A DNA stretch of 64,000 bases, taken from positions 76,222-140,221 of the forward strand of contig JAJECN010000035.1 in the NCBI GenBank assembly GCA_022821965.1, in the 5' to 3' direction. The stretch comes from Candidatus Poribacteria bacterium. GTDB taxonomy: Bacteria; Poribacteria; WGA-4E; WGA-3G. The notes under the pieces were generated by a model. That model made no database searches, was not told where the DNA came from, and saw only the letters and a program-made list of their open reading frames with translations. Below, piece by piece: positions 3,638 through 62,992 of this stretch. The number at the start of each line of letters is the position of its first letter. The stretch's first letter is position 1. The position numbers and the translations under genes were made by a program.

Positions 3638-3844
3638 CTATCCGTGCTGGTCTCCGTTCTGTGACGGAGAGGGTTCATTAAAGGGAACACCTTTCACCTC
3701 GGCTGAGAGGCGGCGTTTATTCCAAGCGTCAATGGCTTGGTACGCTTCTGCGCGCCCCTGTTCAATACCTTGTTCTTTGGCTTTTTCAAGGCTGTGTGCA
3801 TGTTCAGCACGCCACTCGTTAAAACGTCTTAACATGATATCCAC
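3638..3844 (-). CDS. Small hypothetical protein (68 aa)
   Basis: ORF only. Lies between the PhyH and AAC(3)-family genes on the same strand. No recognisable motif. Confidence 0.3.
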   Translation of the reverse strand: MDIMLRRFNEWRAEHAHSLEKAKEQGIEQGRAEAYQAIDAWNKRRLSAEVKGVPFNEPSPSQNGDQHG

Positions 3845-3986: not shown

Positions 3987-4811
3987 TTATTTGCCTCTAT
4001 TTTTTTGAAGCCAATCAACAGCAAAGTCAACAACAACACGTTGCGGCATGAGTTGGCAATCTACGATACCCACTTTTCCATGCTGAACCACCTTGCTTGC
4101 ATCAGAACACAAAAAGTCCTCACCGAGGCGATCGAAATCTGAATCGTCCACATCAATATTTTCAAAGGTACTCCATATCCTTGACCCTGCCTCTGAAATC
4201 GGAGCACCTTCCGTGACGACGCGTTTGGTGGGGAAGTCCGCTCGATATTCTGCGAGATGTATGGATGTATTGCTTGAATGCCCGACACCGAGGAGCAGGA
4301 CAGAACCTTGTAAATCGTAGATTCTGCCAAGTGGCGAATTCTCACCCATACCATACGCCAAGGAATGATCATTTATGATGCCCTGTGCTTGAGGACCACG
4401 GGCACAAAATGAATGCAGTGGATGGGCACTACGGAGAACACCGTCCTGTTTTCGGAAGGTTTCAGCAATTTTGCCCATTGAACGGGTAGGGGTTAAATCG
4501 GGATCGTAGGCAGGCATCGTCTCGCGTATTGTCTGCCACCATGACTCAGGAACAGGTGGGTTCTCCCACTGACTTGGATCGCTGAGGTCGGTTGAATGGG
4601 TCGGCATCACCAACGTGCCAGTTTCTCCCAAGACCTCCTGCAGCGCAATGATCGCAGCAACAGCACCCCCACAGACCCATCCGATCGCGCTCAAGGACGA
4701 GTGGACAATCAAGACCATCCCCTTTTTGACACCGAGTGCCTCAAAATCCGCCTGCAGCGATTCGACCGTGGCGAGTGTTTCGGTCTTGTCAACCACCTGA
4801 CCTTCAGGCAT
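3987..4811 (-). CDS. Aminoglycoside N(3)-acetyltransferase family protein (AAC(3)/Antibiotic_NAT fold)
   Basis: Full-length similarity to the AAC(3) family (LIVHSSLSAIGWVCGG..., HSSNTSIHLAEY). 274 aa. Confidence 0.7.
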   Translation of the reverse strand: MPEGQVVDKTETLATVESLQADFEALGVKKGMVLIVHSSLSAIGWVCGGAVAAIIALQEVLGETGTLVMPTHSTDLSDPSQWENPPVPESWWQTIRETMPAYDPDLTPTRSMGKIAETFRKQDGVLRSAHPLHSFCARGPQAQGIINDHSLAYGMGENSPLGRIYDLQGSVLLLGVGHSSNTSIHLAEYRADFPTKRVVTEGAPISEAGSRIWSTFENIDVDDSDFDRLGEDFLCSDASKVVQHGKVGIVDCQLMPQRVVVDFAVDWLQKNRGK

Positions 4812-18268: not shown

Positions 18269-18551
18269 AAAATAACAGGGATCGTGGCTTCTATTCTCAT
18301 CGGTGTGGCAGCCTTCTTGAAGTCCTTCTTTTTCGGATAGCTGCCGAAGCATTAGTCATAGCATATATCGCAAGATAGGCGTGCCGTATCTTACACCTCT
18401 TGACACTCTCCAATAATCGCCTCAACAAGTCCCTCGTTGGCGAGGTTTGTAACCTCGCCCTTCCACAAAGACGGTTAACATATCTCAGGATTCATCAACG
18501 AGTTGTCCCACGGAGTGATGGTTTTGTAATCTAATACCACCAGCGCACACC

Positions 18552-20267
18552 TCATTTCAGAATGTCTAAGCGCTGTAAAGTAGCGAGTGGACTTACATCA
18601 TTCACTGAAGTTCCACCGAGATTGAGACTCCTTAACCTCTCTAAACCGGCGAGTGGACTTACATCATTCACTAAAGTTCCACCGAGATTGAGACTCCATA
18701 AACTCTGTAAACCGGCGAGTGGACTTACATCATTCACTGAAGTTCCGGCAAGATTGAGACCCCATAAGTTCTGTAAACCGGCGAGCGGACCCACATCGAT
18801 CACTGAAGTTCCACGCAGATCGAGCCAATTCAGATTCTGTAAACCGGCGAGTGGACTTACATTATTCACTGAAGTATAAGTGAGATCAAGACTCCATAAC
18901 CTTTCTAAACCATCGAGCGGACCCACGTCATTCACAAAAGCACCACGGAGATTCAGCCACTCCAACTCCTCTAAATCAGCAAGCGGGCCTATATCACTCA
19001 CAAAAGTTTCACTGAGATTGAGCCTCTCCAACTCCTCTAAACCAGCAAGCGGACTTATATCATTCACTGAAGTATTACGGAGATTAAGATCCCTCAAATT
19101 CTTTAAACTGATAAGAGGACTCACGTCATTCACTAAAGTATTACGGAGATTGAGCCTCTCCAACTTCTCTAAACCAGAAAGCGGACTTATATCATTCACT
19201 GCGGTTTCGCGGAGATTGAGCCTCTCCAGCTCCTCCAAACCAGCAAGCAGACTTATATCATCCACTGCGGTTTTGCTAAGATTGAGACTTTTCAACTTCT
19301 CTAAACCAGCGAGTATACCCACATCATTCACTGAAGTTCCACAAAGATTAAAACTCTTCAACTTCTCCAAACCGGCAAGTATACCCATATCATTCACCGA
19401 AGTTTCCTGGAGATTGAGCCGTTCCAACTTCTCTAAACCGGCAAGCGGACTTATATCATTCACTGCGGTTTCGCGGAGATTAAGACTCTTCAACTTCTCT
19501 AAACCAGTGAGTATACCCACATCATTCACTGAAGTATCAGTGAGATCAAGACTCCTTAAATCCTTTAAACCAGCCAGCGGACTCACGTCATTCACTAAAG
19601 TATTAGCGAGATCGAGACTCCTTAACTTTCCTAAATTAGCCAGCGGACTCACGTCATTCACTGAAGTTTCATGGAGATCCAACTGCCTCAAGTTTTCTAA
19701 ACCAGCCAGCGGACTTACATCATTTACCGAAGTATAAGCGAGGTCCAGACTCCTCAAGTTCTCTAAACCGGCAAGTGGACTCACGTCATTCACTGAAGTT
19801 GTATTGAGATATAGACTCCTCAAGTTCTCTAAACCGGCAAGTGGACTTACGTCATTCACTAAAGTTACATAGAGATACAGCGTCCGCAAGTTTTCTAAAC
19901 CAGCGAGTGGACCCACATCATTTACTGGAGTATCAGCGAGCTGAAGCCACCTCAAGTTCTCTAAACCAGCCAGCGGACCCACATCGATCACTGAAGTACA
20001 AACAAGACTGAGCTGTTCCAACTTTTCTAAACCAGCGAGTAGACTTACATCATTCACTAAAGTATCAACGAGCGATAACGCTATCAAACCCTTCGCCTTT
20101 TCCAAACCCGTTAAGTCGCTTATATCCCGGAAGCTAGCATCCAACTGTCTTAATCCTTTAAGTGCCGACTCCGTAATAGGTTCACTCGATTCTAAATCTA
20201 AAGCTTCACGGATTGCCTTAGCTAAGTACACATCTGGTATCATCACATTCGTAGTAGGATTTGTCAT
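18552..20267 (-). CDS. Leucine-rich repeat (LRR) protein with about 24 near-identical 22-aa repeats
   Basis: Repeat unit LAGLENLRSLDLxxTSVNDVSP iterated across about 540 aa. 66-bp DNA periodicity. Antisense ORFs 18562..18879 and 18880..19737 are repeat artefacts. Confidence 0.8.
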   Translation of the reverse strand: MTNPTTNVMIPDVYLAKAIREALDLESSEPITESALKGLRQLDASFRDISDLTGLEKAKGLIALSLVDTLVNDVSLLAGLEKLEQLSLVCTSVIDVGPLAGLENLRWLQLADTPVNDVGPLAGLENLRTLYLYVTLVNDVSPLAGLENLRSLYLNTTSVNDVSPLAGLENLRSLDLAYTSVNDVSPLAGLENLRQLDLHETSVNDVSPLANLGKLRSLDLANTLVNDVSPLAGLKDLRSLDLTDTSVNDVGILTGLEKLKSLNLRETAVNDISPLAGLEKLERLNLQETSVNDMGILAGLEKLKSFNLCGTSVNDVGILAGLEKLKSLNLSKTAVDDISLLAGLEELERLNLRETAVNDISPLSGLEKLERLNLRNTLVNDVSPLISLKNLRDLNLRNTSVNDISPLAGLEELERLNLSETFVSDIGPLADLEELEWLNLRGAFVNDVGPLDGLERLWSLDLTYTSVNNVSPLAGLQNLNWLDLRGTSVIDVGPLAGLQNLWGLNLAGTSVNDVSPLAGLQSLWSLNLGGTLVNDVSPLAGLERLRSLNLGGTSVNDVSPLATLQRLDILK

Positions 20268-20549
20268 AAATTTTTCTGACTCTTATCAACGTGAGTTCGG
20301 TATAAGAAATTGGTTTGTCATGTAGATGCGATTGAACAACAGTGAGACAAAACACCGAAGCGCGTACTGCGGGAGTATGTCTGTCATCAAATCGGCGATA
20401 GATGTAATATGTCGTGTCGAATTTCTCTAAAGCCTCAAGTCAAACTCGTGTTACAATAATTAAAGACACAATTTTTAGGTAAAACGTTACATGACGTAAA
20501 AAAATTAGCAGAGGGTCACTTGAGGAGATATACTGAAGGGTAGCCACGT

Positions 20550-27796: not shown

Positions 27797-28777
27797 TCAT
27801 GACTCACGTGAAACGACATAGTCCGCAAGTTCTGATAAGGCGGTCCGGGCAGGTGTTTCAGGAAAGATTGCCAACGCTGCTTTGGCGCGGTCAGCATAGC
27901 CTTGGGCAACTTTCAGACAGTGCGGTTCGACCCCGTAGCTTTGAAACAGAGATTCAACAAAAGCAATTGCCTCGGTTTCATCCGTATCAGGGTGCAGCAT
28001 TTTTTCAAGCATCTGCTTCTCACTATCATTACAGACTGTTCGCGCATAAATAATAGGAAAGGTAAGTTTCCCTTCGCGGAGGTCACCGAATGCATCTTTC
28101 CCCAACTTATCAGAATCTTCTGTGAAATCAAGCAGATCATCAACGATCTGGAATGCGGTGCCAATCTGCTGTCCATAGACTGTGAGAGCCTCAATCTGTT
28201 GTGCCTCTGTTGTACCGAGATGCGCGCCAAGAGTGCAGGACGCAGCAATCAGTTTACCTGTTTTGAAACTGATAATCTTGAGGTATTCGTCTTCGGAGAT
28301 GTCAAAATCACCGCTCTTATATGCGTGGATAACCTCGCCTTCACACATCGCCTGCGTGGTATCGGCGAGGATCGCCATCGCTGGATCATCAGAACGGCGA
28401 GCCACAAGCATAGAAAGGACCCGTGCATGCAGGTAATCTCCGACGAGGACAGCAACCTTATTACCCCATTTCGTCTGTAACGTTTCACGTCCACGGCGGA
28501 TCGCAGCCTCGTCAAGTACATCGTCATGAACAAGCGATGCAACATGGATGAGTTCAACAACAGCAGCAAGCGTGTGGGCATCGCTCCCTTCATAGTCGCA
28601 GACTTTGGCAGAAAGCACAACGAGAATCGGACGGAGCCGTTTACCACCACCCTCCACAACATGTTGGACCGCCATGTCAACAAAAGTATATTCACTCGCG
28701 GTATGCTCGGTGAGCTTCGCCTCAATAGCACTGAGGTCGTCGGCAATTAATTCAACAATTTGATCAAAGTTGGACAT
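27797..28777 (-). CDS. Trans-polyprenyl diphosphate synthase
   Basis: FARM motif LVHDDVLDEAAIRRGRET and second Asp-rich motif (IVDDLLDF). The N-terminal 12 codons of the ORF-track call lie inside a repeat element, so ATG 28777 is preferred. Confidence 0.75.
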   Translation of the reverse strand: MSNFDQIVELIADDLSAIEAKLTEHTASEYTFVDMAVQHVVEGGGKRLRPILVVLSAKVCDYEGSDAHTLAAVVELIHVASLVHDDVLDEAAIRRGRETLQTKWGNKVAVLVGDYLHARVLSMLVARRSDDPAMAILADTTQAMCEGEVIHAYKSGDFDISEDEYLKIISFKTGKLIAASCTLGAHLGTTEAQQIEALTVYGQQIGTAFQIVDDLLDFTEDSDKLGKDAFGDLREGKLTFPIIYARTVCNDSEKQMLEKMLHPDTDETEAIAFVESLFQSYGVEPHCLKVAQGYADRAKAALAIFPETPARTALSELADYVVSRES

Positions 28778-28789
28778 AATGTAATAGTT

Positions 28790-28921
28790 CTTGGTTTTCA
28801 GAGTCAGAGTCATCGGTTATCAGTTATCGGTTTTCAGTTAAGAGAAATTCTGTAGCGATCACTTATAAAGCAACTGCCATAAAGCGTTAACTGATAACTG
28901 ACAACTGACGACTGACAACTA
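28790..28921. repeat. Palindromic intergenic element built from tandem heptamers (CAGTTAT/CGGTTTT ... ATAACTG/ACAACTG), STRR-like
   Basis: Left arm ggttatcagttatcggttttcagttaag, about 40-bp spacer, right arm gttaactgataactgacaactgacgactgacaact. The right arm ends at the hemL stop codon. Confidence 0.7.
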
Positions 28922-37177: not shown

Positions 37178-39283
37178 TTATTGCGCGCCTTCTATTGGCA
37201 GCACACCCGCTTCCACGCCTCCTACTTTAATCCTAATCTGTACCTCTTTAGATCCTGTTACGATGAAACCTTTAATAATGAGTTCAGTTTCTATAGGTTG
37301 TTCCGCAGAACCGTCTGGGAGTGGGAAGCCTTCCGGCAATGGAAAACCTTCTGGAATTTTTCCGTTATCGCCTTCACCTTCTTCGCCATTCTCTGGGAGT
37401 GGGAAGCCCTCTGGCAGCGATAAATCTTCCGGTAATGGGAATCCACCGCCAAAAGCTGAGGGTGTAAGGGTTATTGTAATTAACCCCGCATCCATCTGCT
37501 CTTCTTCCTTCTGACGGATGAGTTCGTCGAGGTTCCTTGGCAACGGTTTTTCATCTTCCTCTTCTTCCGTATCTAAGATGTCATCGAAAATATCGCCGAA
37601 GAGTTGTGTGAATTCTGTGTCGTCAGTCGATTCATCGTCGGCGGAAACCGTAAGGGTCGCTTCACCTATCGGGAAGCCGTCAGGGATGTCAAGTATAACT
37701 TCTCTTTGAATTGTTCGTTCAGCACCGGCAGTGCTCCAATGCGGAAGTAGCACAATCGAAACCGTGAGACTTTCCCCAGGCATCACTTCAGTGGGTACAA
37801 TAATTTCGTCAATTTCGGCTTTGGCAATTTGCGGTTTGTCCGTTATAGAAATCGACACCGCTTTCAATGTTGCTTTGCCCGCGCTGTTTCTAAGTGTATC
37901 GGTGAACGAAGCAATAACTGAACCCGTTCCTATGAACACATCTAAAAACGGATTTGAAGAGGCAGTTCGGAACTTTTCTGTATACACAGTTTCGGTTTCT
38001 TGAAAGTGAAGTGTTACAGTCCCTTCAACTGTTGCGGGGTTCCTTTCCATCCGAATAGCATCCATCGTTAAGGCTGCAACAGCCGGAATCGCCCATTCTT
38101 GACCATAAGCCACAACGTGATGTTTCTCCATTGGCGTGTTATTAACAGGACGATAAGAGAATTTCACTGGAATCATTGCTGGCCCCGGACCGAGCTCTCC
38201 TACAATTCCGGGATGTAGGTCTTTGGTTATTGTTCCGATCGGATTTCCAAACTCGGAGACGGATTTAACTGATAGCACCAACCTTGGCACGATTCCATGT
38301 GTCACTGCTCTGTATACCGGTAATGCAGACTTCCCATCAGCCACGAATGGATGCCCAAAGGCTACAAATTTATTGTCATAAATCTGTGTCACTGTCCCAA
38401 AACCAATGACACTCACAACGTCTCCTGTAGCTATGGCAGCACCAATCATATCTCCCGCAGAGAGTTTTGTTTTCACACCCGCAGGCGGTGCCGCACGGAC
38501 ACCCCCGATATTACCAAGCAATTCAACAAAATTGAATCTTGAATCGGAAAAGTATGAGGAAAGTTCTTGAATTCTGTGAGGCTGAATCCCTGTAATCATC
38601 ATAGGTGTTTTAACTGGCGCGTACAAGGAATTAATCGTGAGTGCGGGTGCCGCGGGTGCCGCCTCTTCCTCCAGAAACTCACCAAACGTTGGGTGGTTTA
38701 TTGCTGCCTCCATATAATCAATAGGTGTGACCAAGAACCGATACGGCGGTTTACTATACGAATATGCAAAGGCGAGAGCCCCCATAACACGTCCCGGGGG
38801 ACCGATAGGACTGCCCGACATTCCAGCTGCGACACCACCTAAAGCCTCTGCGGATTCATCAATCAATTCGCACTCGTAGACAGGTGATCCCAAAGGACCC
38901 TCTCGAACGGATCGAAATCGTGCCTGTAGGATAACTTTGCTGGTACCCTCAAGCACGGTAATGATTTCCAAGGGTGTTTTGCTTGTCAGTTTTCCAGCTT
39001 CATCCTCATACATATTTTCCAGTACAACATCTCCGGCAAAACGTGGGGCGTTAAGAACGGATGTAGAATCGTTCGTTATCGGATTTTCAGACTGTGTTTG
39101 CTCTTCATCAAGAGAACAGCCAAGTTGGTATAGCATCGTAATAGCAATGCTGGCAAAAATGAGCAGACGTTTCACTTTGATTCCTCCAAAGACAAAGGTT
39201 TCCTTAATTGTTTTGTTATAGTACACACTAAATTGACCCCTATCGATGAAATTCGCCAGCCATCCATCTTCGGAACACTTCAA
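37178..39283 (-). CDS. Secreted protein with SpoIVB/peptidase-S55-like serine protease core and C-terminal PEGFPLP repeat tail
   Basis: Signal/TM (LLIFASIAITMLYQLGCS). Candidate catalytic Ser in GMSGSPI and His in FVAFGHPF. C-terminus has five or more copies of PEGFPLP plus an acidic low-complexity stretch. Confidence 0.45.
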   Translation of the reverse strand: MKCSEDGWLANFIDRGQFSVYYNKTIKETFVFGGIKVKRLLIFASIAITMLYQLGCSLDEEQTQSENPITNDSTSVLNAPRFAGDVVLENMYEDEAGKLTSKTPLEIITVLEGTSKVILQARFRSVREGPLGSPVYECELIDESAEALGGVAAGMSGSPIGPPGRVMGALAFAYSYSKPPYRFLVTPIDYMEAAINHPTFGEFLEEEAAPAAPALTINSLYAPVKTPMMITGIQPHRIQELSSYFSDSRFNFVELLGNIGGVRAAPPAGVKTKLSAGDMIGAAIATGDVVSVIGFGTVTQIYDNKFVAFGHPFVADGKSALPVYRAVTHGIVPRLVLSVKSVSEFGNPIGTITKDLHPGIVGELGPGPAMIPVKFSYRPVNNTPMEKHHVVAYGQEWAIPAVAALTMDAIRMERNPATVEGTVTLHFQETETVYTEKFRTASSNPFLDVFIGTGSVIASFTDTLRNSAGKATLKAVSISITDKPQIAKAEIDEIIVPTEVMPGESLTVSIVLLPHWSTAGAERTIQREVILDIPDGFPIGEATLTVSADDESTDDTEFTQLFGDIFDDILDTEEEEDEKPLPRNLDELIRQKEEEQMDAGLITITLTPSAFGGGFPLPEDLSLPEGFPLPENGEEGEGDNGKIPEGFPLPEGFPLPDGSAEQPIETELIIKGFIVTGSKEVQIRIKVGGVEAGVLPIEGAQ

Positions 39284-40037
39284 CGTCTGTAAAATCCTTG
39301 AGAATATATCCGATTAACACGGGATCCTTGAGCGCGAGCCAAATAAGTGCATCCTGCTCGTCGTATTCATCAAACAGTTCTCCAGCGAGCGCAGCATCCG
39401 CCTGCTCAGTTTTTCCAACGTAAAAGATGAGTTCCAGGAGAAAGAAAGCGAACTCCACCCCATTCACAGCATTCCGTTTGGGATGTACAAAATGCTTAAA
39501 TCCTATATTGAGTCCAGGACCGTCCATCAACTTCGCGAATTCGTCTTGAAAAGTATCAGGATCTTCGCCATGGTATCCACGGGTCAGAACATGTCTATAG
39601 TGTACTGCGAAAAGATGGGCATTCGCGGCATCTTCTTCGTCAGGTTTCTTAAGCTGCTGCTTCAAAAATGGCATGTATCGCGATGGATGAGACGATGCCA
39701 TTTCCCAGAACGCATCATAAGTTTGATAGCGGTCTTCTAACGGATGGTTACGTCTGAGGAAGTCTAAATAGGTCCTGGACGTGACGAGTCGCCGGAGCGT
39801 TCTGAAGTCGTCATCTAAAATGTTCCCCGGGTTTTCACGCTTGAGTTGTTCAAACGTTTCCTCGGGCGTTGGGGGTCGTGCGACTGGCTCAACACGGCTC
39901 TCTGTGTTGATGTCTTCTTTTTCGGGTTTTAGCGTGCTTGGATCTGGACTGGATTGGCACGCGAAAAGTAGGGAGATCCCTAAAAAGAGACAGACTCGCA
40001 GTTGGTTGAAAAAGTGTTGACATTCAAAGTATCGCAT
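39240..40037 (-). CDS. Hypothetical lipoprotein (paralog A)
   Basis: Lipobox LLFACQSS. Conserved blocks shared with the next gene (NPGNILDDDFRTL...TYLDFLRRNHP, KDFTDVEVFRRWMAGEF). Confidence 0.4.
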   Translation of the reverse strand: MRYFECQHFFNQLRVCLFLGISLLFACQSSPDPSTLKPEKEDINTESRVEPVARPPTPEETFEQLKRENPGNILDDDFRTLRRLVTSRTYLDFLRRNHPLEDRYQTYDAFWEMASSHPSRYMPFLKQQLKKPDEEDAANAHLFAVHYRHVLTRGYHGEDPDTFQDEFAKLMDGPGLNIGFKHFVHPKRNAVNGVEFAFFLLELIFYVGKTEQADAALAGELFDEYDEQDALIWLALKDPVLIGYILKDFTDVEVFRRWMAGEFHR

Positions 40038-40140: not shown

Positions 40141-41061
40141 TTAGTCCTGGGGTAGCATCCACCAGGAGGCGATTTCACTAAATTCTCCATTAACCCATTT
40201 CCGGAACACCTGAACGTCTGTAAAATCTTTGAGGACATATCCGAGACTCACCGGTTCTTGGAGTGCGACCCGTAAAATCCCTTTTTGAACGCCATGTTCA
40301 ACAAAAAGTGCCTGTATTTTTGCCCGATCTTCCTCTTGCAGGTCCTCGACCAGAATCAGATGATAGGCCAAAATTTTTATCCAAAGAAGAAAGTTTACGC
40401 CTTCGGCATCAAAAAGGCGTTGCTCCAGCCAACTGTTCACAGGCTCATTCATCATCATATCCACAGTACTTTCACGTCCTTGGTTCTCACCATGATACGT
40501 GCGGACATTCAAGGTGCGATGATGCAAAGTCATATAACGAAGGATATCAACATCCTCTGCAGTCGGAGCAGGGCGAGGCGGCTTAAGATGGGTGTTCAAA
40601 AGTTCCACGTACGGCTCTTCATCTACAGATACCAACGCCCAAAACTCATCGAAATTCTGAAACTGATTTTCCTGTGGATAGGTACGTTTCAAGAAGTCTA
40701 TATAAGTTTCTGAGTTGATGATGTCTTGAATCCTTGTGAAGTCGTCGTCTAAAACGTTGCCAGGAAATTCCAGACGCAACTGCGCCGTCATCTCCGCCAT
40801 TGTAGGGAGCCTTTGCATCGGTGCCATTGGTGCTGCGTCAACAAATTGCGGTGCGGATTCCATCGCCAAGACATTTTTCTGTACATTCGCCAGCACCTCT
40901 GCCACCATTTCTCTCGTGATGGATTGCGTCGTTGTTTCTGCTGGGGCTAACGCGTTGCGGTCTTGGGGTTCCGAACAGCCGCAAACCGCTGCACCTCCGA
41001 GAAGGACACAAAAGGTCAATAGATTGAACAGACACTGATATTGAGATCGAAAATATACCAT
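40141..41061 (-). CDS. Hypothetical lipoprotein (paralog B)
   Basis: Lipobox-like signal (LLGGAAVCGCSEP). Same conserved blocks (EFPGNVLDDDFTRIQ...TYIDFLKRTYP, KDFTDVQVFRKWVNGEF). Confidence 0.4.
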   Translation of the reverse strand: MVYFRSQYQCLFNLLTFCVLLGGAAVCGCSEPQDRNALAPAETTTQSITREMVAEVLANVQKNVLAMESAPQFVDAAPMAPMQRLPTMAEMTAQLRLEFPGNVLDDDFTRIQDIINSETYIDFLKRTYPQENQFQNFDEFWALVSVDEEPYVELLNTHLKPPRPAPTAEDVDILRYMTLHHRTLNVRTYHGENQGRESTVDMMMNEPVNSWLEQRLFDAEGVNFLLWIKILAYHLILVEDLQEEDRAKIQALFVEHGVQKGILRVALQEPVSLGYVLKDFTDVQVFRKWVNGEFSEIASWWMLPQD

Positions 41062-41232
41062 GCTTTTTCTCCTTAAGTTGTGTGGACGTTTCTATAAACA
41101 TTCCGCCCCGCTGGGGCTACTGTATCCGCCTTTTCAACGATTTACAATGAGGATCAAACACATTGAAAAATCGACAAATACTTGAAAACTCAATATGAAA
41201 TGGACAGAAATTGATCAACCTTTAGTCACTTT

Positions 41233-41283
41233 TTAATGATACAATTTAAGGGGCAAAAGGGTGCATAATTTGAAAAAAAAATT
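41233..41283. repeat. About 50-bp direct repeat, copy 1 (ttaatgatacaatttaaggggcaaaagggtgcataatttgaaaaaaaa)
   Basis: About 47/50 identical to copy 2 at 44531..44580. Lies between the stop of the sigma-fusion gene and the start of lipoprotein paralog B. Confidence 0.7.
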
Positions 41284-41349
41284 GGAAAAACTGAATCAGA
41301 ACGGCGATAAAATGAAAATGAAAGGTTTTTCAGGAGCCTTCTGTCAATA

Positions 41350-44322
41350 TCAATCGTTTTCTTTTTTAAGCGAGGCATGAAATATCCCGCTCCGCTTGGT
41401 AGCGATATAAAGTCTATCACCATCAATGGCAACGGAGATGACCCTGTTCGGCACCTCTGGCAAGATTTGTTCCCATTTTCCCCGGTTATCCAATTGATAG
41501 ACCCCCGCATTACCAGCCCCATAAATCGTCGTGCCAACCACAGCAATTCTATCTATAATAGTGCGGGTCCCTGCCTTATCAGTTAGCGTGCGCCAGTTTT
41601 CACCCTCATCTGATGTTAAGACACCTGCGTCTGTAGCGACGTGAACCGCTGAACCGGCAAAAACTATCTCGTTGAAATGCTCAAATTGGAACGGCAGCGT
41701 TGCAGTGAGGTCTTTCCATGTGTTACCACCATCAAGCGATCGAAAGAGATGCCCATTGCGTTTGCCAACATAGACAGTTTCGCCTGAAACAGCGAGAATG
41801 AAACGATTGGGATCATCGTTAGCAGGTTCATAGATGTCTACCAGTCCAGTGTCGAACCATTCAGGTTCGCCGCGTCTCCACCGCAGAAGTCGCCCCTGAT
41901 ACGTCACATAGAATGCATCGCCGCTAACCGCAAATTCGCGAGGAATACTCCGTGGCTTTGTATTTGTCGAACTACTAACTTTTTCAGGATCGTTAGCGGA
42001 ATCGTCTGCTATATTTTCTTTGGGGACTTTCTCTGATACCTCTATAGGGAGACTCCCGCCAAAAACAGGGATATCTTGAATAAGAACCAAGGTCCTGCCA
42101 CTGAAAGAAAGACGGAAAATGCGCAGTGCATCTTCCATGCCTAAGATGGGTGTGATGCCGTAAAGCACACCGTCAGAAACCGCCATTTTTGGAAAACCCA
42201 ACAGCCCCCCAGCGTCCAATCCATCTACTTTTGGTAACGCATTAGGACCGAAGCCCAAGGTTTTCCACGACCTCCCACCATCAATGGATTTAGCGATATT
42301 CATACCGGTATTTATATAGAGCGCGTTTTTGAATGCCAGTAACTTAAAAATTCCGGTCCCTACCATCCCTGCTATAAATGGATGCCACGATTCACCGCTA
42401 TCGGTTGAACGGGTAAGCCCAAAAAGCCCGGCTTTGAACAGTGTATTTTCGTCCACTCCGACAACCGGTAATACGCTCAGCATCATTGAATTCACCATCG
42501 AATTTAAGTCTAATTTGTTAGCTTCGGGGTGCGTCCATGTTTCCCCGCGATCAGTTGATCGGAATTGGAACCCGATATATCCGAGTGCCCAGAGCGTTTC
42601 TCCAGCAGTCAGGACTTTAATCCCCGGTGATATCCTTAACAAGATCGATTCATTTACGGGGGTTATTTCAGTCCACGAATCGCCCAAATCGGTTGAACGA
42701 AAAATTTCCCACATATTTTGCTTCTTCTCCATTGCTTCTTGTACAGATGCCTTCACTCGAGAAGAATTGAAAAGATCGGGTCCTGTCCCGACATAAAGGT
42801 TATTTTCGGAAACTGCCAAGGAATGGATAGCCAGAGTAGTATTCAATGGCAATTTTTCTAAACCGTGTCTTGACTTGATACGGTAGAGTCCTTGATTTGT
42901 CCCGACAAATACTGTGTTTTCAAACATAGCCAAGGCAAAGACTGTTACCTCTGTACCTTCATCATTCAATAGCGTCCACTGCTTACCCATATCTTCAGAT
43001 CGAAAAACACCTTTGTCTTGAAGCGCGAGGTACAACGCTTCATCCGTTATCGCTAATCCGATAGCAACTCCTTCTGGACGTGTCCCAAGCGATGTCCATA
43101 TCTCTCCACTATTGCTCGAACTGAACACTTCATTAACAGAGACAAGATAGAGCGTGTCATCTTTCTCTGCCATCGGTATCAGGTCGGCACCGGTGGAAGC
43201 GGTTGGAAAGTTAACAGCGGATGCAGGACTAACGAACGTCCATGCAGGAGCATCGGGTGTCAATCTATAGATACCGAGGTGCGAAGCGGCGTAGGTAGTG
43301 CCTTCTGAACTGACGAATAAGCCCGATATCAGACCCCCTCCCGGACCGCTTGCTTGTACCCACTGCTGCTTCATTGTCTCGGGTACTTCCTTCTCTATCT
43401 GCGCGGCAGCAGGCACAACAGGTTCCGAAACTTGTGGACCAGCACCTCTGCTCCTACCGGTAGTATCAAAACGTCCGGCTTGGTTCCGTAAATCCGGCTC
43501 CGCTTGTGTATCAAGGACGATAGGCGCGTCAATGATTTCAACAGTGGTTTCCGATTGGGCGTTTAAGTTGTAAGGCTTTTGAAAGCGGGCAAGGTACTGA
43601 GACCCGATACCGATCATTAGAATAAAAAAAATAGCAGCAGTACCAAAAGCTACCCACGGTAGCAGTGGTTTCCCAGACTGAGGCGCAATCGGCTTCATGT
43701 CGGCAACTTGCCGCATAATACTCTCCATGAAATCGGTAGACAATTGGACGCTGCCGAGCGTTTCACGAACTAAGAGTTCTTCTTCTTGTAAACGCTCTCG
43801 TGCCCGGCGAAGGCGACTCTTAATCGTGTTCACTGACACACCTAAGAACTTGCCAATCTCTTTCGTTGTCATTTCACCGAGATAATGGAGTGTCACCACT
43901 GTGCGTTCACTCTCCGGCAGCTTTTCCAGCAGTTCTTTGACGATTTCGTGGCGATGTTCCATAACTTCCATCTCCCGTTGATCCGATACATAATGTTTAT
44001 AAGAAGATTCCTCTATCTCCGTTACAGGTGTGTCCCCCAGGGATTGCATCGTAGGTTTTCTCTTTTGATGCCATCTCTTGCAAAGATTACTCGCAATAAC
44101 ATAAAGCCATCCAGCAAACTGGTTGGGATTCCTTAGTGTAGCGAGGTTTTTGTATACTTGGAGGAAGGCATCTTGGGCAATCTCTTCAGCGATATGAAAA
44201 TCTCCAATTTTCCGCCACGCAAGTGCGTGAACACTCTTTTGGTATTTTCGGACCAAGGCACTGAATGCCTCCTCATCACCTGCTAACACTCTGTAAATCA
44301 GTTGAACATCGTCTTCCACCAT
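41350..44322 (-). CDS. Single-polypeptide ECF sigma factor - transmembrane helix - BNR/Asp-box beta-propeller fusion protein
   Basis: Residues 1-190 carry sigma-70 regions 2 and 4 (ERTVVTLHYLGEMTTKEIGKFLGVSVNTIKSRLRRARERL). One TM helix (LLPWVAFGTAAIFFILMIGIG). About 700-aa extracytoplasmic region with eight or more SxDxGxxW Asp-box motifs. Confidence 0.7.
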   Translation of the reverse strand: MVEDDVQLIYRVLAGDEEAFSALVRKYQKSVHALAWRKIGDFHIAEEIAQDAFLQVYKNLATLRNPNQFAGWLYVIASNLCKRWHQKRKPTMQSLGDTPVTEIEESSYKHYVSDQREMEVMEHRHEIVKELLEKLPESERTVVTLHYLGEMTTKEIGKFLGVSVNTIKSRLRRARERLQEEELLVRETLGSVQLSTDFMESIMRQVADMKPIAPQSGKPLLPWVAFGTAAIFFILMIGIGSQYLARFQKPYNLNAQSETTVEIIDAPIVLDTQAEPDLRNQAGRFDTTGRSRGAGPQVSEPVVPAAAQIEKEVPETMKQQWVQASGPGGGLISGLFVSSEGTTYAASHLGIYRLTPDAPAWTFVSPASAVNFPTASTGADLIPMAEKDDTLYLVSVNEVFSSSNSGEIWTSLGTRPEGVAIGLAITDEALYLALQDKGVFRSEDMGKQWTLLNDEGTEVTVFALAMFENTVFVGTNQGLYRIKSRHGLEKLPLNTTLAIHSLAVSENNLYVGTGPDLFNSSRVKASVQEAMEKKQNMWEIFRSTDLGDSWTEITPVNESILLRISPGIKVLTAGETLWALGYIGFQFRSTDRGETWTHPEANKLDLNSMVNSMMLSVLPVVGVDENTLFKAGLFGLTRSTDSGESWHPFIAGMVGTGIFKLLAFKNALYINTGMNIAKSIDGGRSWKTLGFGPNALPKVDGLDAGGLLGFPKMAVSDGVLYGITPILGMEDALRIFRLSFSGRTLVLIQDIPVFGGSLPIEVSEKVPKENIADDSANDPEKVSSSTNTKPRSIPREFAVSGDAFYVTYQGRLLRWRRGEPEWFDTGLVDIYEPANDDPNRFILAVSGETVYVGKRNGHLFRSLDGGNTWKDLTATLPFQFEHFNEIVFAGSAVHVATDAGVLTSDEGENWRTLTDKAGTRTIIDRIAVVGTTIYGAGNAGVYQLDNRGKWEQILPEVPNRVISVAIDGDRLYIATKRSGIFHASLKKEND

Positions 44323-44443
44323 CGGAATTCTCCATGATTATAGTAAAATCTAAATTATCCATACATCAACAAAATGGCGACGTTACAAATCTCCACAGCG
44401 AAGAAACACGGCTGCAGAACTGTTCAGGACTTACGCAGCCTCT

Positions 44444-44472
44444 CGCTGGCGAGGTTTAAAACCTCGCCAGCG
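44444..44472. repeat. GGCGAGGTTT...AAACCTCGCC palindromic hairpin element (family copy)
   Basis: cgctggcgaggtttaaaacctcgccagcg with a 13-bp stem. Related copies at 18439..18459, 45926..45946 and 62972..62992. Confidence 0.55.
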
Positions 44473-44530
44473 GCGTGTAGGAGGCAAGTACTTATCAGAA
44501 AAGTGCGCAAATCTCCCTGTTATTCAATTA

Positions 44531-44580
44531 TTAATGATACAATTTTAAGGGGAAAAGGGTGCATAATTTGAAAAAAATTA
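44531..44580. repeat. About 50-bp direct repeat, copy 2
   Basis: ttaatgatacaattttaaggggaaaagggtgcataatttgaaaaaaatta, about 210 bp upstream of the sigma-fusion start codon. Confidence 0.7.
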
Positions 44581-44807
44581 GATAGAACTTACGCAAATTG
44601 ACCAGAAAAAAGGTATATTTTGCTGAAAAGTTGTTATTTGATTGTATTTAACCCCCTAAATCCCCCTTATCAGGGGGACTTTAAGAGAAAATGCGTAAGT
44701 CCTATTAGAAAAAGAATCTGATACTCATCGGATTTGGGCAAATTCCACTAAGATAAATTGGGCAGGAGTAGTCCTTGGAAGTATGTATTAAATTTAGGAA
44801 CAAAAAA

Positions 44808-46010
44808 TTACTGCTTTTTCACCTCTCCCCACGTTGTTGTCAACAATTTCGGCTGCGGTGAAACAGGCAACGCGACGACTGGATCAAACCAATCCGCCAA
44901 GGAATTTGCTTGAAACCGAGCTAATCCAACGACATGGGTGAGTTGTATTGGCGTGCGGCTGCCTAAGTCAATTTTGAAAAGTTGGAGGTAATCATCAATT
45001 TCCTGCGTATAAATAAGTGCATCACCCCGCGGCGACCAAACCGGATCCCTGGCTTGTGCTCCCGCTTCATCAACAATCTGTTGAAGTCCGGTGCCATCTC
45101 TATTCGCAATGTAGATTGTCCCTTTGTCCCGTACATCTTGGATATCTACTTCAGCGAAATCAACACCTCGATTCTGAGCCCGTTTCAATTTTTCTTTCCA
45201 GAAATCATGCCTGAGCCAGAAAAAAGCGAGTTTGTCGCCGGACGGGGACCAAGCAGCCCTATACATATACGGATGATGATTTGGAAGGAACGTCTCTTCT
45301 ACACGTGTTCGGAGGTCGAAAAAATGAAGTTGAGAGAGACGACGAATAATCCATAGGTTGGGTGCCAGCATTTCGTGTTTTTTACCCGTTGAGACAAAGA
45401 CTATCTCCGTCCCGTCAGGTGACCAACTGGGTGAAAGTCCGATCGCTATTCGTTGCTCCTGTTTGCCAGTTACTTCCGCTGTATAGATGAACCACGCAGC
45501 ACCATCAAGTCGCTCATAAGCAATTCTTTTTCCATCCGGAGACCACGTTGGGTGTGCCCTATGTGCAGACTTCCCGAAAATTTTCCGTACATTGCCACCG
45601 TCGGCATCCATTAGATATAGGTCCCGCACACCATCACGGTCTGAGACAAAAAGAATTTGCTCTCCTGTGGGCGACCAGACCGGATAAACATCCTCTGCTG
45701 GATGGTTGGTAATATTGACCTGTTGACTTCCATCGGGATTCATTAAGTATATCTCGCGATTTCCATCACGGAATGACGCGAATACAATCTTTGCTGTGTC
45801 TGGTGCCTTGCCAAAAGCTGGACGAATGCTCACGCATAACAATACTATACTGAATAGAAAAAAAATATGGTAAAATCGAAAAATATGTGAACAGTTCGGC
45901 ACGGAACAAACACCCCACCGCCCCTGGCGAGGTTTGGAATCTCGCCTTTGTGTGGGTGTATAGGTAATTGCGGATTTTACTATAATCGAAAGACTTTGTG
46001 TGGGTTTCAT
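44808..46010 (-). CDS. TolB-like periplasmic WD40-like (PD40) beta-propeller protein
   Basis: Repeated PD40 units (DGNREIYLMNPDGS, SPDGKRIAYE, SPDGTEIVF). Start uncertain: the upstream part of the ORF-track call overlaps a hairpin repeat and the neighbouring gene. Confidence 0.6.
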   Translation of the reverse strand: MKPTQSLSIIVKSAITYTPTQRRDSKPRQGRWGVCSVPNCSHIFRFYHIFFLFSIVLLCVSIRPAFGKAPDTAKIVFASFRDGNREIYLMNPDGSQQVNITNHPAEDVYPVWSPTGEQILFVSDRDGVRDLYLMDADGGNVRKIFGKSAHRAHPTWSPDGKRIAYERLDGAAWFIYTAEVTGKQEQRIAIGLSPSWSPDGTEIVFVSTGKKHEMLAPNLWIIRRLSQLHFFDLRTRVEETFLPNHHPYMYRAAWSPSGDKLAFFWLRHDFWKEKLKRAQNRGVDFAEVDIQDVRDKGTIYIANRDGTGLQQIVDEAGAQARDPVWSPRGDALIYTQEIDDYLQLFKIDLGSRTPIQLTHVVGLARFQANSLADWFDPVVALPVSPQPKLLTTTWGEVKKQ

Positions 46011-46036
46011 CACAAATTTCGCCTGCAATGGGTCAA

Positions 46037-47032
46037 CTATTTGGAGGCATCTTCTGATTGCTTGAGTGCCCCCCAGAGCGTTATCTGTTTCTCCGCACTC
46101 GGAGAAACGGAAAGAAAACCCTCCGGCACCCACTCAGGACCATCAGCTACCAGTCTTCTTGTTGCCTCAATCGGATCCCCGCCCGCAACGTCTGCCATAT
46201 TTGCAACACAGATGACCGAGTTCGCAAAAAACTCTTCCGCCAGACCCCACACCTCTGGACGAATTTCTGGTAGTTGAATCAAAAGATAGGCGATCCATTT
46301 CCCATTCGGTGACCACGTAGGTTCAAAGATTGCTACAGGTTTTCTATACAACCGAGTGAGTTGGCGCATATTTTTTCCATCTATGTCAATACTGAAAAGA
46401 GCAGCACCCCCGACAGCCCCCCATCGTGGGACAAAAGCAATCTCTTTACCACTCGGTGACCATGTGCAGTCAGTAGAAGACGTGTCTGCGAGGGGTTGCT
46501 CCTTTTTCCCTTCAGTAGTCATCAGAAAAAGAGAGGATTTTGAGATAAAGGCGATCCATTGGCTATCTGGAGACCACGCGGGTCTTTTGCAGCCTCCTCG
46601 ATTCGTCAGTCGCATCACATTTTCTCCATTGGCATCCATTCTGTAGAGGTCTATATTCCCCGCGCGATTTGAGGCGAAGGCGATCCATTTTCCATTCGGA
46701 GACCACGCGGGCCACCAATCCCTACCATCATCGAAGGTCAACCGACGATGTGTGTCCGTTCTCACATCCATTACGTAAATATCAGGGTCCCCATTTCGAT
46801 TGGACATATAGGCAATCAAGCGTCCATCAGGGGACCAGGTGAGGTGGCCTATGGATTCTTTTACCATCAGTGTTTGAAGGAATTCGCCTCGGGTATTTAT
46901 GAGTTGGATAGAACGCCTATCCTTTCCCGTGACAAAAGAGAGGACATCACGCTCATCCGCCCAGCCACGGCTAACAAACGTGAAAGACCCTATCAATAAC
47001 ACCATCCCTAATATCACACAAATGAATAAGCG
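46037..47032 (-). CDS. TolB-like periplasmic PD40 beta-propeller protein
   Basis: Signal peptide MKRLFICVILGMVLLIGSFT. PD40 repeats (SPDGRLIAYMSNRNGDPDIYVMD, SPNGKWIAFASNRAGNIDLYRMD). Start re-assigned to ATG 47032. Confidence 0.65.
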   Translation of the reverse strand, partial: RLFICVILGMVLLIGSFTFVSRGWADERDVLSFVTGKDRRSIQLINTRGEFLQTLMVKESIGHLTWSPDGRLIAYMSNRNGDPDIYVMDVRTDTHRRLTFDDGRDWWPAWSPNGKWIAFASNRAGNIDLYRMDANGENVMRLTNRGGCKRPAWSPDSQWIAFISKSSLFLMTTEGKKEQPLADTSSTDCTWSPSGKEIAFVPRWGAVGGAALFSIDIDGKNMRQLTRLYRKPVAIFEPTWSPNGKWIAYLLIQLPEIRPEVWGLAEEFFANSVICVANMADVAGGDPIEATRRLVADGPEWVPEGFLSVSPSAEKQITLWGALKQSEDASK

Positions 47033-47530
47033 TTTCATATCTATATTTCCTTTTTGATGTTGCATTATATAGGGGGTAATGGATAGACGCAACGGAAATT
47101 TCGATGGAAAACTGACAGGGCTGTTTGAAAGAGAAAGAAAAGGAGCCGGAAACCATGTCCTAATCGGTTCCAAGAGGTTCAGGGACTCTAACCTAACTCT
47201 CGTGTGCAACAGAGGCTTGCAAACTATACCTTTTAGGAATTATGGCTCCGGCTTACCCAAGGAGGCTTATATAAGACATTTGCAATTTCCGTGCCAATAG
47301 AAAAGTGCCTGTTTTAGGCAATTTGCGGAGGGTATTGCCCACTTTTTCAACATTTTATGATAAAAAAATAAACACGACTCTAATAGCAACAGGAAACCGA
47401 GCAAGTTACAGAATATCGGCAACGCGGAAGAGCGTCGCGACTGGAGTCTGTATAATTAACCGACAACCTCCATTGCCATCCAAAGTCGCCCACAGATTGA
47501 TACCCCCGCTCAGACCATGATACATCAACG

Positions 47531-49615: not shown

Positions 49616-49808
49616 GATAATAATTTCCGATGCGCTTCTTTATTCTTTAGGACTTACTAATAGAGGCGATAAATCGCCTCACTACCAACAGATACGCTTC
49701 GGAACAACGTTTTTTCTCAAAAAGGTATAGTTTGTCCTCGCGCAATTCTGCGGTGTACTCGTCCAAATGCGACGTGCATTATTACGCCTTGCGTAAGTCC
49801 TATTCTTC

Positions 49809-52411: not shown

Positions 52412-52426
52412 TGTGTGTTTTCCTTT

Positions 52427-52496
52427 CCAATGCTGACGGCACACGGACTGTGCCTGCTACTCCAATGCTGACGGCACACGGACTGTGCCTGCTACT
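52427..52496. repeat. Perfect tandem duplication of a 35-bp unit containing a hairpin (GGCACAcggacTGTGCC)
   Basis: ccaatgctgacggcacacggactgtgcctgctact x2, between the cupin start and the stop of the Uma2 gene at 52502. Confidence 0.7.
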
Positions 52497-55834: not shown

Positions 55835-55850
55835 CAAAAGCCTCCTGTGT

Positions 55851-55958
55851 TATAGTTTTCAGTTATCAGTTATCAGTCGTCGGTTAAGAGATGTTTAGGC
55901 AAGAAAAATCAACATAACTGCCACACACTGAAAACTGACTACTGACAACTGATAACTA
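55851..55958. repeat. Palindromic heptamer-repeat element, same family as 28790..28921
   Basis: Left arm cagttatcagttatcagtcgtcggttaagag, spacer, right arm ctgaaaactgactactgacaactgataact. Fills the whole ppdK-pafA gap and ends 1 nt before the pafA stop. Confidence 0.7.
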
Positions 55959-58102: not shown

Positions 58103-58111
58103 ATCTGTATT

Positions 58112-58210
58112 TTAGTTCTCGGTTATCAGTTCTCGGTCTTCAGAAAGAAAAACACGTGTGTCCCTGAAAACTATATGTCGATCTCCGTGACAACCAAAGA
58201 CTGAAAACCA
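58112..58210. repeat. Heptamer-repeat element in the prcB-prcA intergenic gap
   Basis: tagttctcggttatcagttctcggtcttcag ... ctgaaaac ... gactgaaaacc. Contains a CACGTG palindrome. Confidence 0.55.
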
Positions 58211-62971: not shown

Positions 62972-62992
62972 GCGAGGGATAAAAACCTCGCC
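62972..62992. repeat. GCGAGG-gataaaaa-CCTCGC hairpin (GGCGAGG family), 40 nt past the recA stop
   Basis: Same stem sequence as the copies at 18439, 44444 and 45926. Confidence 0.45.

Follow-up and report, generated by a model that had tools for sequence, protein, structure and literature searches.

The reference promoters for sigma factors of the extracytoplasmic function (ECF) class are those of Bacillus subtilis SigW, TGAAAC-N16-CGTA, and Escherichia coli RpoE, GGAACTT-N16-TCAAA, both of the AAC/CGT type. Autoregulation is usual among ECF sigma factors, and the prediction of ECF promoters routinely builds on motifs conserved upstream (PMC7826278). Membrane-spanning ECF fusions have been described, i.e., IutY of Pseudomonas putida (ECF243), SCO4117 of Streptomyces coelicolor (ECF52), and ECF48/53, while planctomycetal ECF57-type sigma factors carry WD40-like repeats in a C-terminal extension (PMC8999054). 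Here we examine a 64,000-nt stretch of a Candidatus Poribacteria bacterium (assembly GCA_022821965.1, contig JAJECN010000035.1, positions 76,222 to 140,221 of the forward strand), hereafter the window, in which two near-identical direct repeats bracket a gene for an ECF sigma factor fused to a beta-propeller (the sigma-fusion gene). We consider it probable that these repeats are minus-strand ECF (group 4 sigma-70) promoters, most likely read by the membrane-anchored sigma/beta-propeller fusion family to which the bracketed gene belongs.

The two copies lie at positions 41222-41283 (copy 1) and 44520-44581 (copy 2), match at 52 of 62 positions without gaps, and bracket the 990-aa sigma-fusion open reading frame (ORF) at 41350-44322 on the minus strand. 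An initial annotation made from the sequence alone had described 50-bp repeats, about 47/50 identical, set in unrelated flanks. Global alignment of 41233-41283 with 44531-44580 gave 48 identical columns (50/51 nt) and three indels of 1-2 nt, and the 100 nt flanking the copies are 17% and 27% identical between copies, as random sequence would be. Both the near-identity and the unrelated flanks were thus borne out, and both copies are found where that annotation placed them; only the length had to be revised, as the similarity extends to about 62 bp, somewhat above the earlier figure. The 22-mer AAAGGGTGCATAATTTGAAAAA occurs exactly twice in the window at up to three mismatches and not at all in 100 shuffles, and a repeat search over the whole 64 kb found no further close copy. 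All genes surrounding the repeats are on the minus strand. Copy 2 ends 201-209 nt upstream of the sigma-fusion ATG (44322; 214 nt when counted as a promoter site), and copy 1 is located 70 nt past the sigma-fusion stop codon and about 165-172 nt upstream of the ATG (41061) of a lipoprotein-like gene, paralogue B.

When the 18-mer GGGTGCATAATTTGAAAA was scanned against one genome per species, 95 places were retrieved among the species-representative genomes. About half of these fall in the N-terminal uvrA coding region (peptide GARVHNLKN) of unrelated phyla and are chance coding matches. About 40 of the 95 are intergenic, in at least 24 Candidatus Poribacteria metagenome-assembled genomes and at no fewer than ten different orthologous positions, and conservation at these sites is also seen outside the 18-mer bait. 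The element is present in sponge metagenomes as well. Given this spread, the repeat is not a private duplication of the window. Neighbouring genes in the Poribacteria loci run opposite to a plus-strand reading of the motif, and it is therefore given here on the gene strand, on which the stacked copies yield the consensus T-tract-CAAATTA-TGCACC-CTTT-(about 9 variable nt)-AAATTG-(T/C)GTC-TTTAATAAT. The information content of the 39 stacked copies peaks in two blocks with a variable spacer between them, although the invariance of the first block in these copies is an artefact, since that block contains the 18-mer bait.

Copies that owe nothing to the bait retain both blocks. About 15 such copies, taken from the fetched loci by profile search, read (A/T)TTA-TGCA-(C/A)-n-n-TTT and TTG-(T/C)-GTC-TTTAA, and the sites not picked by the bait read ATGCA(A/C)C..TTTT and (C/T)GTC(T/A)(T/C)TA, many of them being TGCAAC...CGTC outright. 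The distance between the blocks is TGCAxx-N19-xTC in 73 of 88 sites and N18 in the other 15; measured from a 7-mer -35 to a 5-mer -10, it comes to 17 bp, a rigid spacer that falls within the 16-18 bp allowed in predicting ECF promoters (PMC7776599). The family as a whole has the AAC-type -35 and the CGT/GTC-type -10 of ECF promoters, of which the window copies are variants (TGCACC...GTATC). Condensed, the motif is ATTA-TGCA(C/A)C-TTT and (C/T)GTC-TTAAT around a rigid 18-nt spacer, with an optional T-tract in front, and it has the layout of an ECF promoter with an AAC-type -35 and a CGTC-type -10.

Within the window, copy 2 (44520..44581, minus strand; nhmmer E=1.8e-17 with the family model) is the putative ECF-type promoter of the sigma-fusion gene. 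Its -35 core TGCACC occupies 44558..44563 (TGCA(C/A)C in the family, with ATTA before and TTT after), and its -10 core GTATC, 19 nt past the -35 hexamer, occupies 44536..44540 ((C/T)GTC in the family, or GTATC in the closest paralogues). A T-tract upstream of the -35 (44571..44577), frequent but not obligatory in the family, resembles an UP element. Copy 1 (41222..41283, minus strand; nhmmer E=2.5e-14) has the same parts, i.e., a T-tract at 41273..41281, TGCACC at 41260..41265, and GTATC at 41238..41242, and would serve the string formed by lipoprotein B, lipoprotein A, and a 701-aa ORF. With the retrained family model described below, exactly three sites are found in the 64 kb, all on the minus strand: the two repeats and a weaker site at 20446..20491 (E=6.4e-6), which reads TGTAAC (20491..20486)-N18-GTC (20467..20465)-TTTAAT.

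Like the SigW and RpoE promoters, the Poribacteria element is bipartite, with an AAC-type -35 followed by a T-run, a CGT/GTC-type -10, rigid spacing, and an AT-rich upstream tract, and it stands upstream of its own sigma gene and of envelope-related targets. Unlike them, it has a TGCA(C/A)C core at -35 with a conserved ATTA prefix, and its -35/-10 distance exceeds theirs by about 2 nt; in the window copies, AAC and GTC are replaced by ACC and ATC, and no separate anti-sigma gene lies beside the sigma gene.

The sigma-fusion protein itself combines ECF sigma regions 2 and 4, within residues 1-190, with a short linker, one hydrophobic segment, and BNR/Sortilin-type beta-propeller repeats; region 4 is followed, after only some 30-40 residues, by the hydrophobic segment. 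The sigma domain matches Pfam Sigma70_r2, Sigma70_r4_2, and Sigma70_ECF, belongs to the ECF superfamily by its score of 101 bits against NCBIfam TIGR02937 (cut-off 42.9), and matches PDB SigW at E=2.6e-26, with SigW and RpoE as its best named relatives. As in IutY, SCO4117, and ECF48/53, for which proteolytic release has been proposed, a single polypeptide has an ECF sigma at its N-terminus along with a transmembrane segment and an extracytoplasmic domain (PMC8999054). In those proteins, however, an anti-sigma or zinc-finger domain lies between sigma and membrane, whereas family searches detected no anti-sigma family in the sigma-fusion protein; its ectodomain is in addition a BNR/Sortilin-type propeller, and its family is strongly expanded within one phylum. 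The protein resembles ECF57 in that an ECF core is fused to beta-propeller repeats, and differs in that these repeats are BNR/Sortilin or PD40-like rather than WD40. A 661-aa paralogue in locus L047 has the same sigma and membrane module with an ectodomain that, by eye, is Kelch-type and not BNR/Sortilin, and on that reading the family seems to swap its sensor propellers.

The initial family model was biased by the 18-mer bait; it was therefore retrained with non-bait sites and tested on loci selected by protein. The pooled data comprised 118 loci and 1.09 Mb of Poribacteria-type DNA, searched at E<=0.01. At this threshold, the family model retrieved 138 matches and a reversed (uncomplemented) model of identical composition retrieved none. 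The matches are overwhelmingly intergenic (131 of 138), and 115 have an ORF start at most 400 nt downstream. Long ORFs that follow within 600 nt have the motif's orientation in 106 cases and the opposite one in 5, and in gaps between co-directional genes the motif shares their direction 67 times and opposes it 3 times, which is the orientation dependence to be expected of ECF promoter targets. This polarity, together with the intergenic bias, argues against a dispersed repeat, an unpolarised operator, or a plus-strand RNA gene. The initial annotation had proposed a search for further copies and their downstream genes, and had held that many copies scattered without relation to gene starts would point to a dispersed repeat. 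The copies are indeed many, yet almost all are aimed at a gene start.

The genes directly behind the motif, apart from the sigma-fusions, are mostly of envelope or secreted types. They include PD40/TolB-like proteins, a 113-aa STAS protein, a trypsin-like protease with TPR, a LamG-type lectin, a 3-keto-disaccharide-hydrolase-like protein, an ABC-2 permease, an M16 peptidase-like protein, an AhpC/TSA-type redoxin, and a stand-alone ECF sigma factor. In five loci (L020, L036, L055, L083, and L087), two motif copies stand back to back about 230 nt apart and diverge, for instance at 3800-3837 (minus) and 4063-4124 (plus) of L087; one copy of such a pair leads to a 102-111-aa ORF, and the other to about 1.8 kb without a same-strand ORF of at least 80 aa. 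In L003 (1472-2900), the first ORF behind the motif (370 aa) resembles by eye a TnpB/OrfB-type transposon protein, and if it is one, an insertion probably separates the promoter from its original target there.

The tie between the motif and the sigma-fusion genes can be seen in two sets of loci. In loci fetched through the motif, a biased set, sigma-fusion homologues lie immediately downstream of the motif 8 times and immediately upstream 8 times; flanking ORFs were clustered and N-termini inspected, and both counts include the window's own two copies. The placements in the other loci are the same two arrangements as in the window. The independent set was chosen by alignment of the N-terminal 300 aa of eight paralogues, a region covering the sigma domain, the short linker, the hydrophobic segment, and a conserved juxtamembrane motif, without reference to the DNA motif. 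A metagenome search with the sigma-fusion N-terminus retrieved 133 relatives, of which 78 loci were kept, all from sponge-type metagenomes, and a single 552-kb contig holds at least six paralogues. In these 78 loci, the first model gave 74 matches, 70 of them on the sigma strand, and placed a -10 30-241 nt upstream of the start in 38 of the 72 testable genes. The retrained model placed 90 of 94 matches on the sigma strand and gave 43 of 72 genes a site 28-241 nt upstream (median distance from motif to start, 61.5 nt), where about 1-2 of 72 would be expected by chance. In these 43 genes the site lies upstream of, and faces, the ECF gene itself, as autoregulation requires. The motif, its rigid geometry, its gene-facing orientation, and its strong phylum-wide tie to sigma-fusion genes are demonstrated by these data. 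The first option that the initial annotation had listed for the repeats was a cis-regulatory module common to both, for example a cognate promoter through which the fused ECF sigma would regulate its own gene together with those of the lipoproteins, and it is this option that the comparative evidence as a whole supports.

The flavour of the promoter also follows the subfamily of the sigma gene. The site reads G/A-TCTTTAAT for paralogues that share 59% or more identity with the window protein, and GTCAC/T-TA for those that share 56% or less. The uncommon -10 region GTATCATTAA is present in both window copies and is found elsewhere upstream of the paralogues most like the window sigma (L099, L102, L103, L105, L106, L124, and L133). 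The window pair is the closest of 22 same-locus site pairs, with 5 differences in 52 nt, spacer included, and only 0.8% of between-locus site pairs are equally close. From these comparisons, we infer a recent origin of copy 1, in which the promoter of the sigma gene itself was duplicated or took part in a conversion, which would have wired the lipoprotein genes into the regulon. Such an event would account for the near-identity of the two copies, spacer included, and for the pair having been noticeable to a reader from the sequence alone.

Under the promoter reading, the element would be built from a T-tract that is not obligatory, ATTA-TGCACC-CTTT as an extended -35, a spacer of fixed length, GTATC as the -10 (C/T-GTC in the family), and TTAAT. 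RNA polymerase with the family's N-terminal sigma would start about 7-9 nt past the -10, i.e., near 44528, 41230, and 20457. Through copy 2, the sigma-fusion gene would then be under positive autoregulation; through copy 1, lipoprotein B, possibly along with lipoprotein A and the 701-aa ORF, would join the sigma regulon; and the divergent third site would add the gene of a leucine-rich-repeat (LRR) protein. The sensor domain would presumably control the release or the activity of the sigma domain. The simplest model for activation, suggested by the short linker, the lack of a detectable anti-sigma domain, and the analogy with IutY/ECF52 (PMC8999054), is proteolytic release after a signal at the BNR/Sortilin propellers; alternatively, the sigma may be active while still tethered to the membrane.

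Several points weigh against this account. Each of its functional steps is deduced from sequence. Twenty-nine of the 72 sigma-fusion genes have no site within 400 nt, although several of these have one 0.9-2.3 kb upstream, behind another co-oriented gene. Both window copies depart from the family consensus at its two most diagnostic positions (TGCACC instead of TGCAAC, ATC instead of GTC), and the -35/-10 distance is about 2 nt above the SigW/RpoE consensus, yet inside the 16-18 bp range (PMC7776599). The co-variation of flavour with sigma subfamily could reflect co-inheritance and not specificity, and, as many paralogues share one core, both sites could be read by a paralogue other than the adjacent one. 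Finally, a homologue of lipoproteins A/B was found in one other locus only (L100), after a sigma-fusion gene and with no motif before it, which makes copy 1 probably a lineage-specific addition.

An ECF-type promoter could also be read by a different sigma factor, such as a stand-alone ECF master regulator, in which case the sigma-fusion genes would be its targets and not autoregulators. We regard this as unlikely. A gene for a 223-aa stand-alone ECF sigma does lie downstream of the motif in L019 and L086, and one core motif shared across dozens of paralogues would suit a single upstream regulator. Against it stand the sites upstream of sigma-fusion genes in 43 of 72 independent loci, the agreement between flavour and sigma-fusion subfamily, and the window itself, which holds one sigma-fusion gene and no other ECF gene; autoregulation is, moreover, the rule for ECF sigma factors (PMC7826278).

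Our assessment is poorer still for an operator bound by a conventional repressor or activator, in which the two blocks would be half-sites: we give it little chance. The blocks share a loose direct similarity (AAAG..AATTT on the plus strand), but they are neither palindromic nor true direct repeats, and their sequences and spacing fit an ECF -35 and -10. The strict orientation (67 versus 3) is what one expects of a promoter and is not required of an operator, and the flanking ORFs of the motif loci include no candidate regulator gene conserved beside the motif.

The plus strand offers another reading, under which TGATACAAT would be the extended -10 of a small-RNA gene or of an antisense promoter. 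TGATACAAT does fit TGnTAnAAT in both window copies, and about 230 nt of non-coding DNA follow copy 2 on that strand. Nevertheless, TGATACAAT is merely the reverse complement of the window -10 region ATTGTATCA (GTATC), and its positions read AGACACAAT or AGACGCAAT in other genomes, so that the plus-strand extended -10 is not conserved. The other strand feature in the initial annotation, CAAATTATGCACCC on the minus strand, fared better and corresponds to the extended -35. The plus-strand sequence downstream is unrelated between the copies, small ORFs are unconserved (39 versus 8 codons on the plus strand, 6 versus 14 on the minus), and in other loci the plus-strand direction usually enters the 3' end of a convergent gene. 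With no Rfam match, no terminator after either copy, and fold z-scores of just -1.5 and -1.9 for folds that differ from each other, the small-RNA gene family suggested by the initial annotation was rejected, and we consider any reading of this kind very improbable.

The least credible reading, which we hold to be close to excluded, is a dispersed selfish repeat (a repetitive extragenic palindrome or miniature inverted-repeat transposable element) or a target-site duplication left when an insertion carried the sigma-fusion gene in: two direct copies do flank one gene, the window pair is unusually alike down to its spacer, and these genomes have other, truly dispersed short repeats, but 62 bp is far beyond any target-site duplication, there are no terminal inverted repeats and no palindrome, the element occurs singly before many different genes with its orientation tied to the gene, and the sigma-fusion family carries the motif upstream in many genomes, with the element at more than 100 gene-upstream positions overall.

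Other promoter classes were also tried on the repeats and set aside. A sigma-70 consensus scan called nothing at them on either strand. On the minus strand, sigma-70 -35/-10 hexamers at 17-nt spacing sit in non-conserved positions, and on the plus strand neither the TG nor the hexamer of a sigma-70 extended -10 (TGnTAnAAT) is conserved. A plus-strand sigma-54 site (GG-N10-GC) at GGGTGCATAATTTGA has TTGA instead of TTGC at -12, and its direction points into convergent genes. For a Bacteroidetes-type -7 box (TAnnTTTG), the element has TAATTTG, which is one base short and on the wrong strand.

An autoregulated ECF promoter together with a membrane-fused sigma is a known arrangement and is expected for this class of regulator; for general biology, it brings no new principle. 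The combination of this motif, its use throughout the Poribacteria phylum, and the large sigma/propeller expansion that shares it seems not to have been described in the searchable literature. A literature search combining Poribacteria with ECF sigma factors found no paper linking the two, and the main text of the ECF classification paper mentions neither BNR nor Poribacteria. We know of no experimental work on transcriptional regulation in the uncultivated Poribacteria. A directional, phylum-wide motif allows regulons to be predicted by scanning complete genomes, and its parts, the 62-bp promoter and the 190-residue sigma domain, are short enough to be testable in a heterologous host.

The shared motif also opens the question of cross-talk among paralogues with one promoter type. 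Judging from the paralogues on the 552-kb contig (at least six) and the 133 metagenome relatives, Poribacteria genomes probably carry dozens of membrane-tethered sigma/propeller paralogues each. Their DNA-recognition regions are nearly invariant, and all stand behind essentially the same promoter core. One tentative possibility, which we think doubtful, is that the paralogues all read the same promoters and form a 'fan-in' network, with many sensors to one regulon and mutual cross-activation. ECF groups are usually orthogonal, and a fan-in would be the opposite. If it holds, sensing outside the cell, perhaps with the BNR/Kelch propellers detecting host glycans, would be connected to the envelope and eukaryote-like LRR proteins of a sponge symbiont; alternatively, the paralogues would discriminate through their subfamily-specific promoter flavours. 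The motif also ties the signalling family to secreted and envelope proteins, possibly including an internalin-like LRR protein, of a class that has long figured in discussions of how sponges and their symbionts interact. The third site is located 200 nt upstream of this LRR gene (18552..20267, minus strand; 571 aa). About 25 tandem 66-bp units at 18441-20136 correspond to the 22-residue leucine-rich repeats of the 571-aa protein, and internalin-like LRR proteins belong to the 'eukaryote-like' class typical of sponge symbionts.

The genes behind copy 1 begin with lipoprotein paralogue B (40141..41061, minus strand; 306 aa), which has the ribosome-binding site AAGGAG and, read directly, a lipobox-like AAVCGC. 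Lipoprotein paralogue A (39240..40037; 265 aa) and the 701-aa ORF, which overlaps the end of A (37178..39283), trail it on the same strand with short gaps or none, and both may share its transcript. Lipoproteins A and B are paralogous ORFs with lipoprotein-like N-termini and no match to a Pfam or NCBIfam family, and neither the sigma-fusion protein nor lipoprotein B received a name from a cluster look-up. On the other side of the sigma-fusion gene, PD40 beta-propeller proteins are encoded at 44808-46133 and 46037-47209 (minus strand; family match). No tRNA or tmRNA that might provide an attachment site was found in the 64-kb window.

Other short repeats accompany the locus. A GC-rich palindrome, GGCGAGGTT-N(2-6)-AACCTCGCC, has 26 copies in the 1.09 Mb of Poribacteria-type DNA, where none are expected. 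In the window it occurs at 18439-18459, 28331-28339, 44448-44468, 45926-45946, and 62984-62992, one copy lying inside the predicted sigma-fusion leader, between promoter and ATG. The public Logan contig L001 ends exactly at this leader palindrome (window position 44471), and a public run contains an identical contig of 3.4 kb. As no T-run follows it, the palindrome is REP-like and not a terminator. The 15-mer GATTTTACTATAATC, with a sigma-70-like TATAAT, is present at 44336-44350 (minus) and 45973-45987 (plus), in inverted orientation. Each copy lies about 30-100 nt from a GC palindrome, and one is immediately upstream of the sigma-fusion ribosome-binding site; the 15-mer could serve as a basal housekeeping promoter or belong to some larger repeat module. 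The 11-mer GGACTTACGCA has 31 copies against 0.5 expected, among them 44427-44437 (plus), 44692-44702 (minus), and 49790-49800 (minus), with a variant at 44585 (plus). At 8932-9260 of L100, two copies of it bracket a short ORF that looks by eye like a transposase fragment, and the 11-mer possibly represents the terminus of a small mobile element.

Arrays of 7-nt units (CAGTTAT / CGGTTAT / CAGTCAT) form inverted pairs at 28803-28913, 55849-55957, and 58109-58151 of the window and could fold into long hairpins. Similar arrays are found directly upstream of the motif T-tract in several Poribacteria loci, e.g., L002, L022, L035, L037, and L094, and may act as insulating terminators. A 35-bp unit, TCCAATGCTGACGGCACACGGACTGTGCCTGCTAC, with a short hairpin inside, is duplicated perfectly in tandem at 52426-52495. 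Lastly, two adjacent units of about 1046 bp, 74-80% identical, occupy positions 3-1857 and are most likely tandem paralogous genes.

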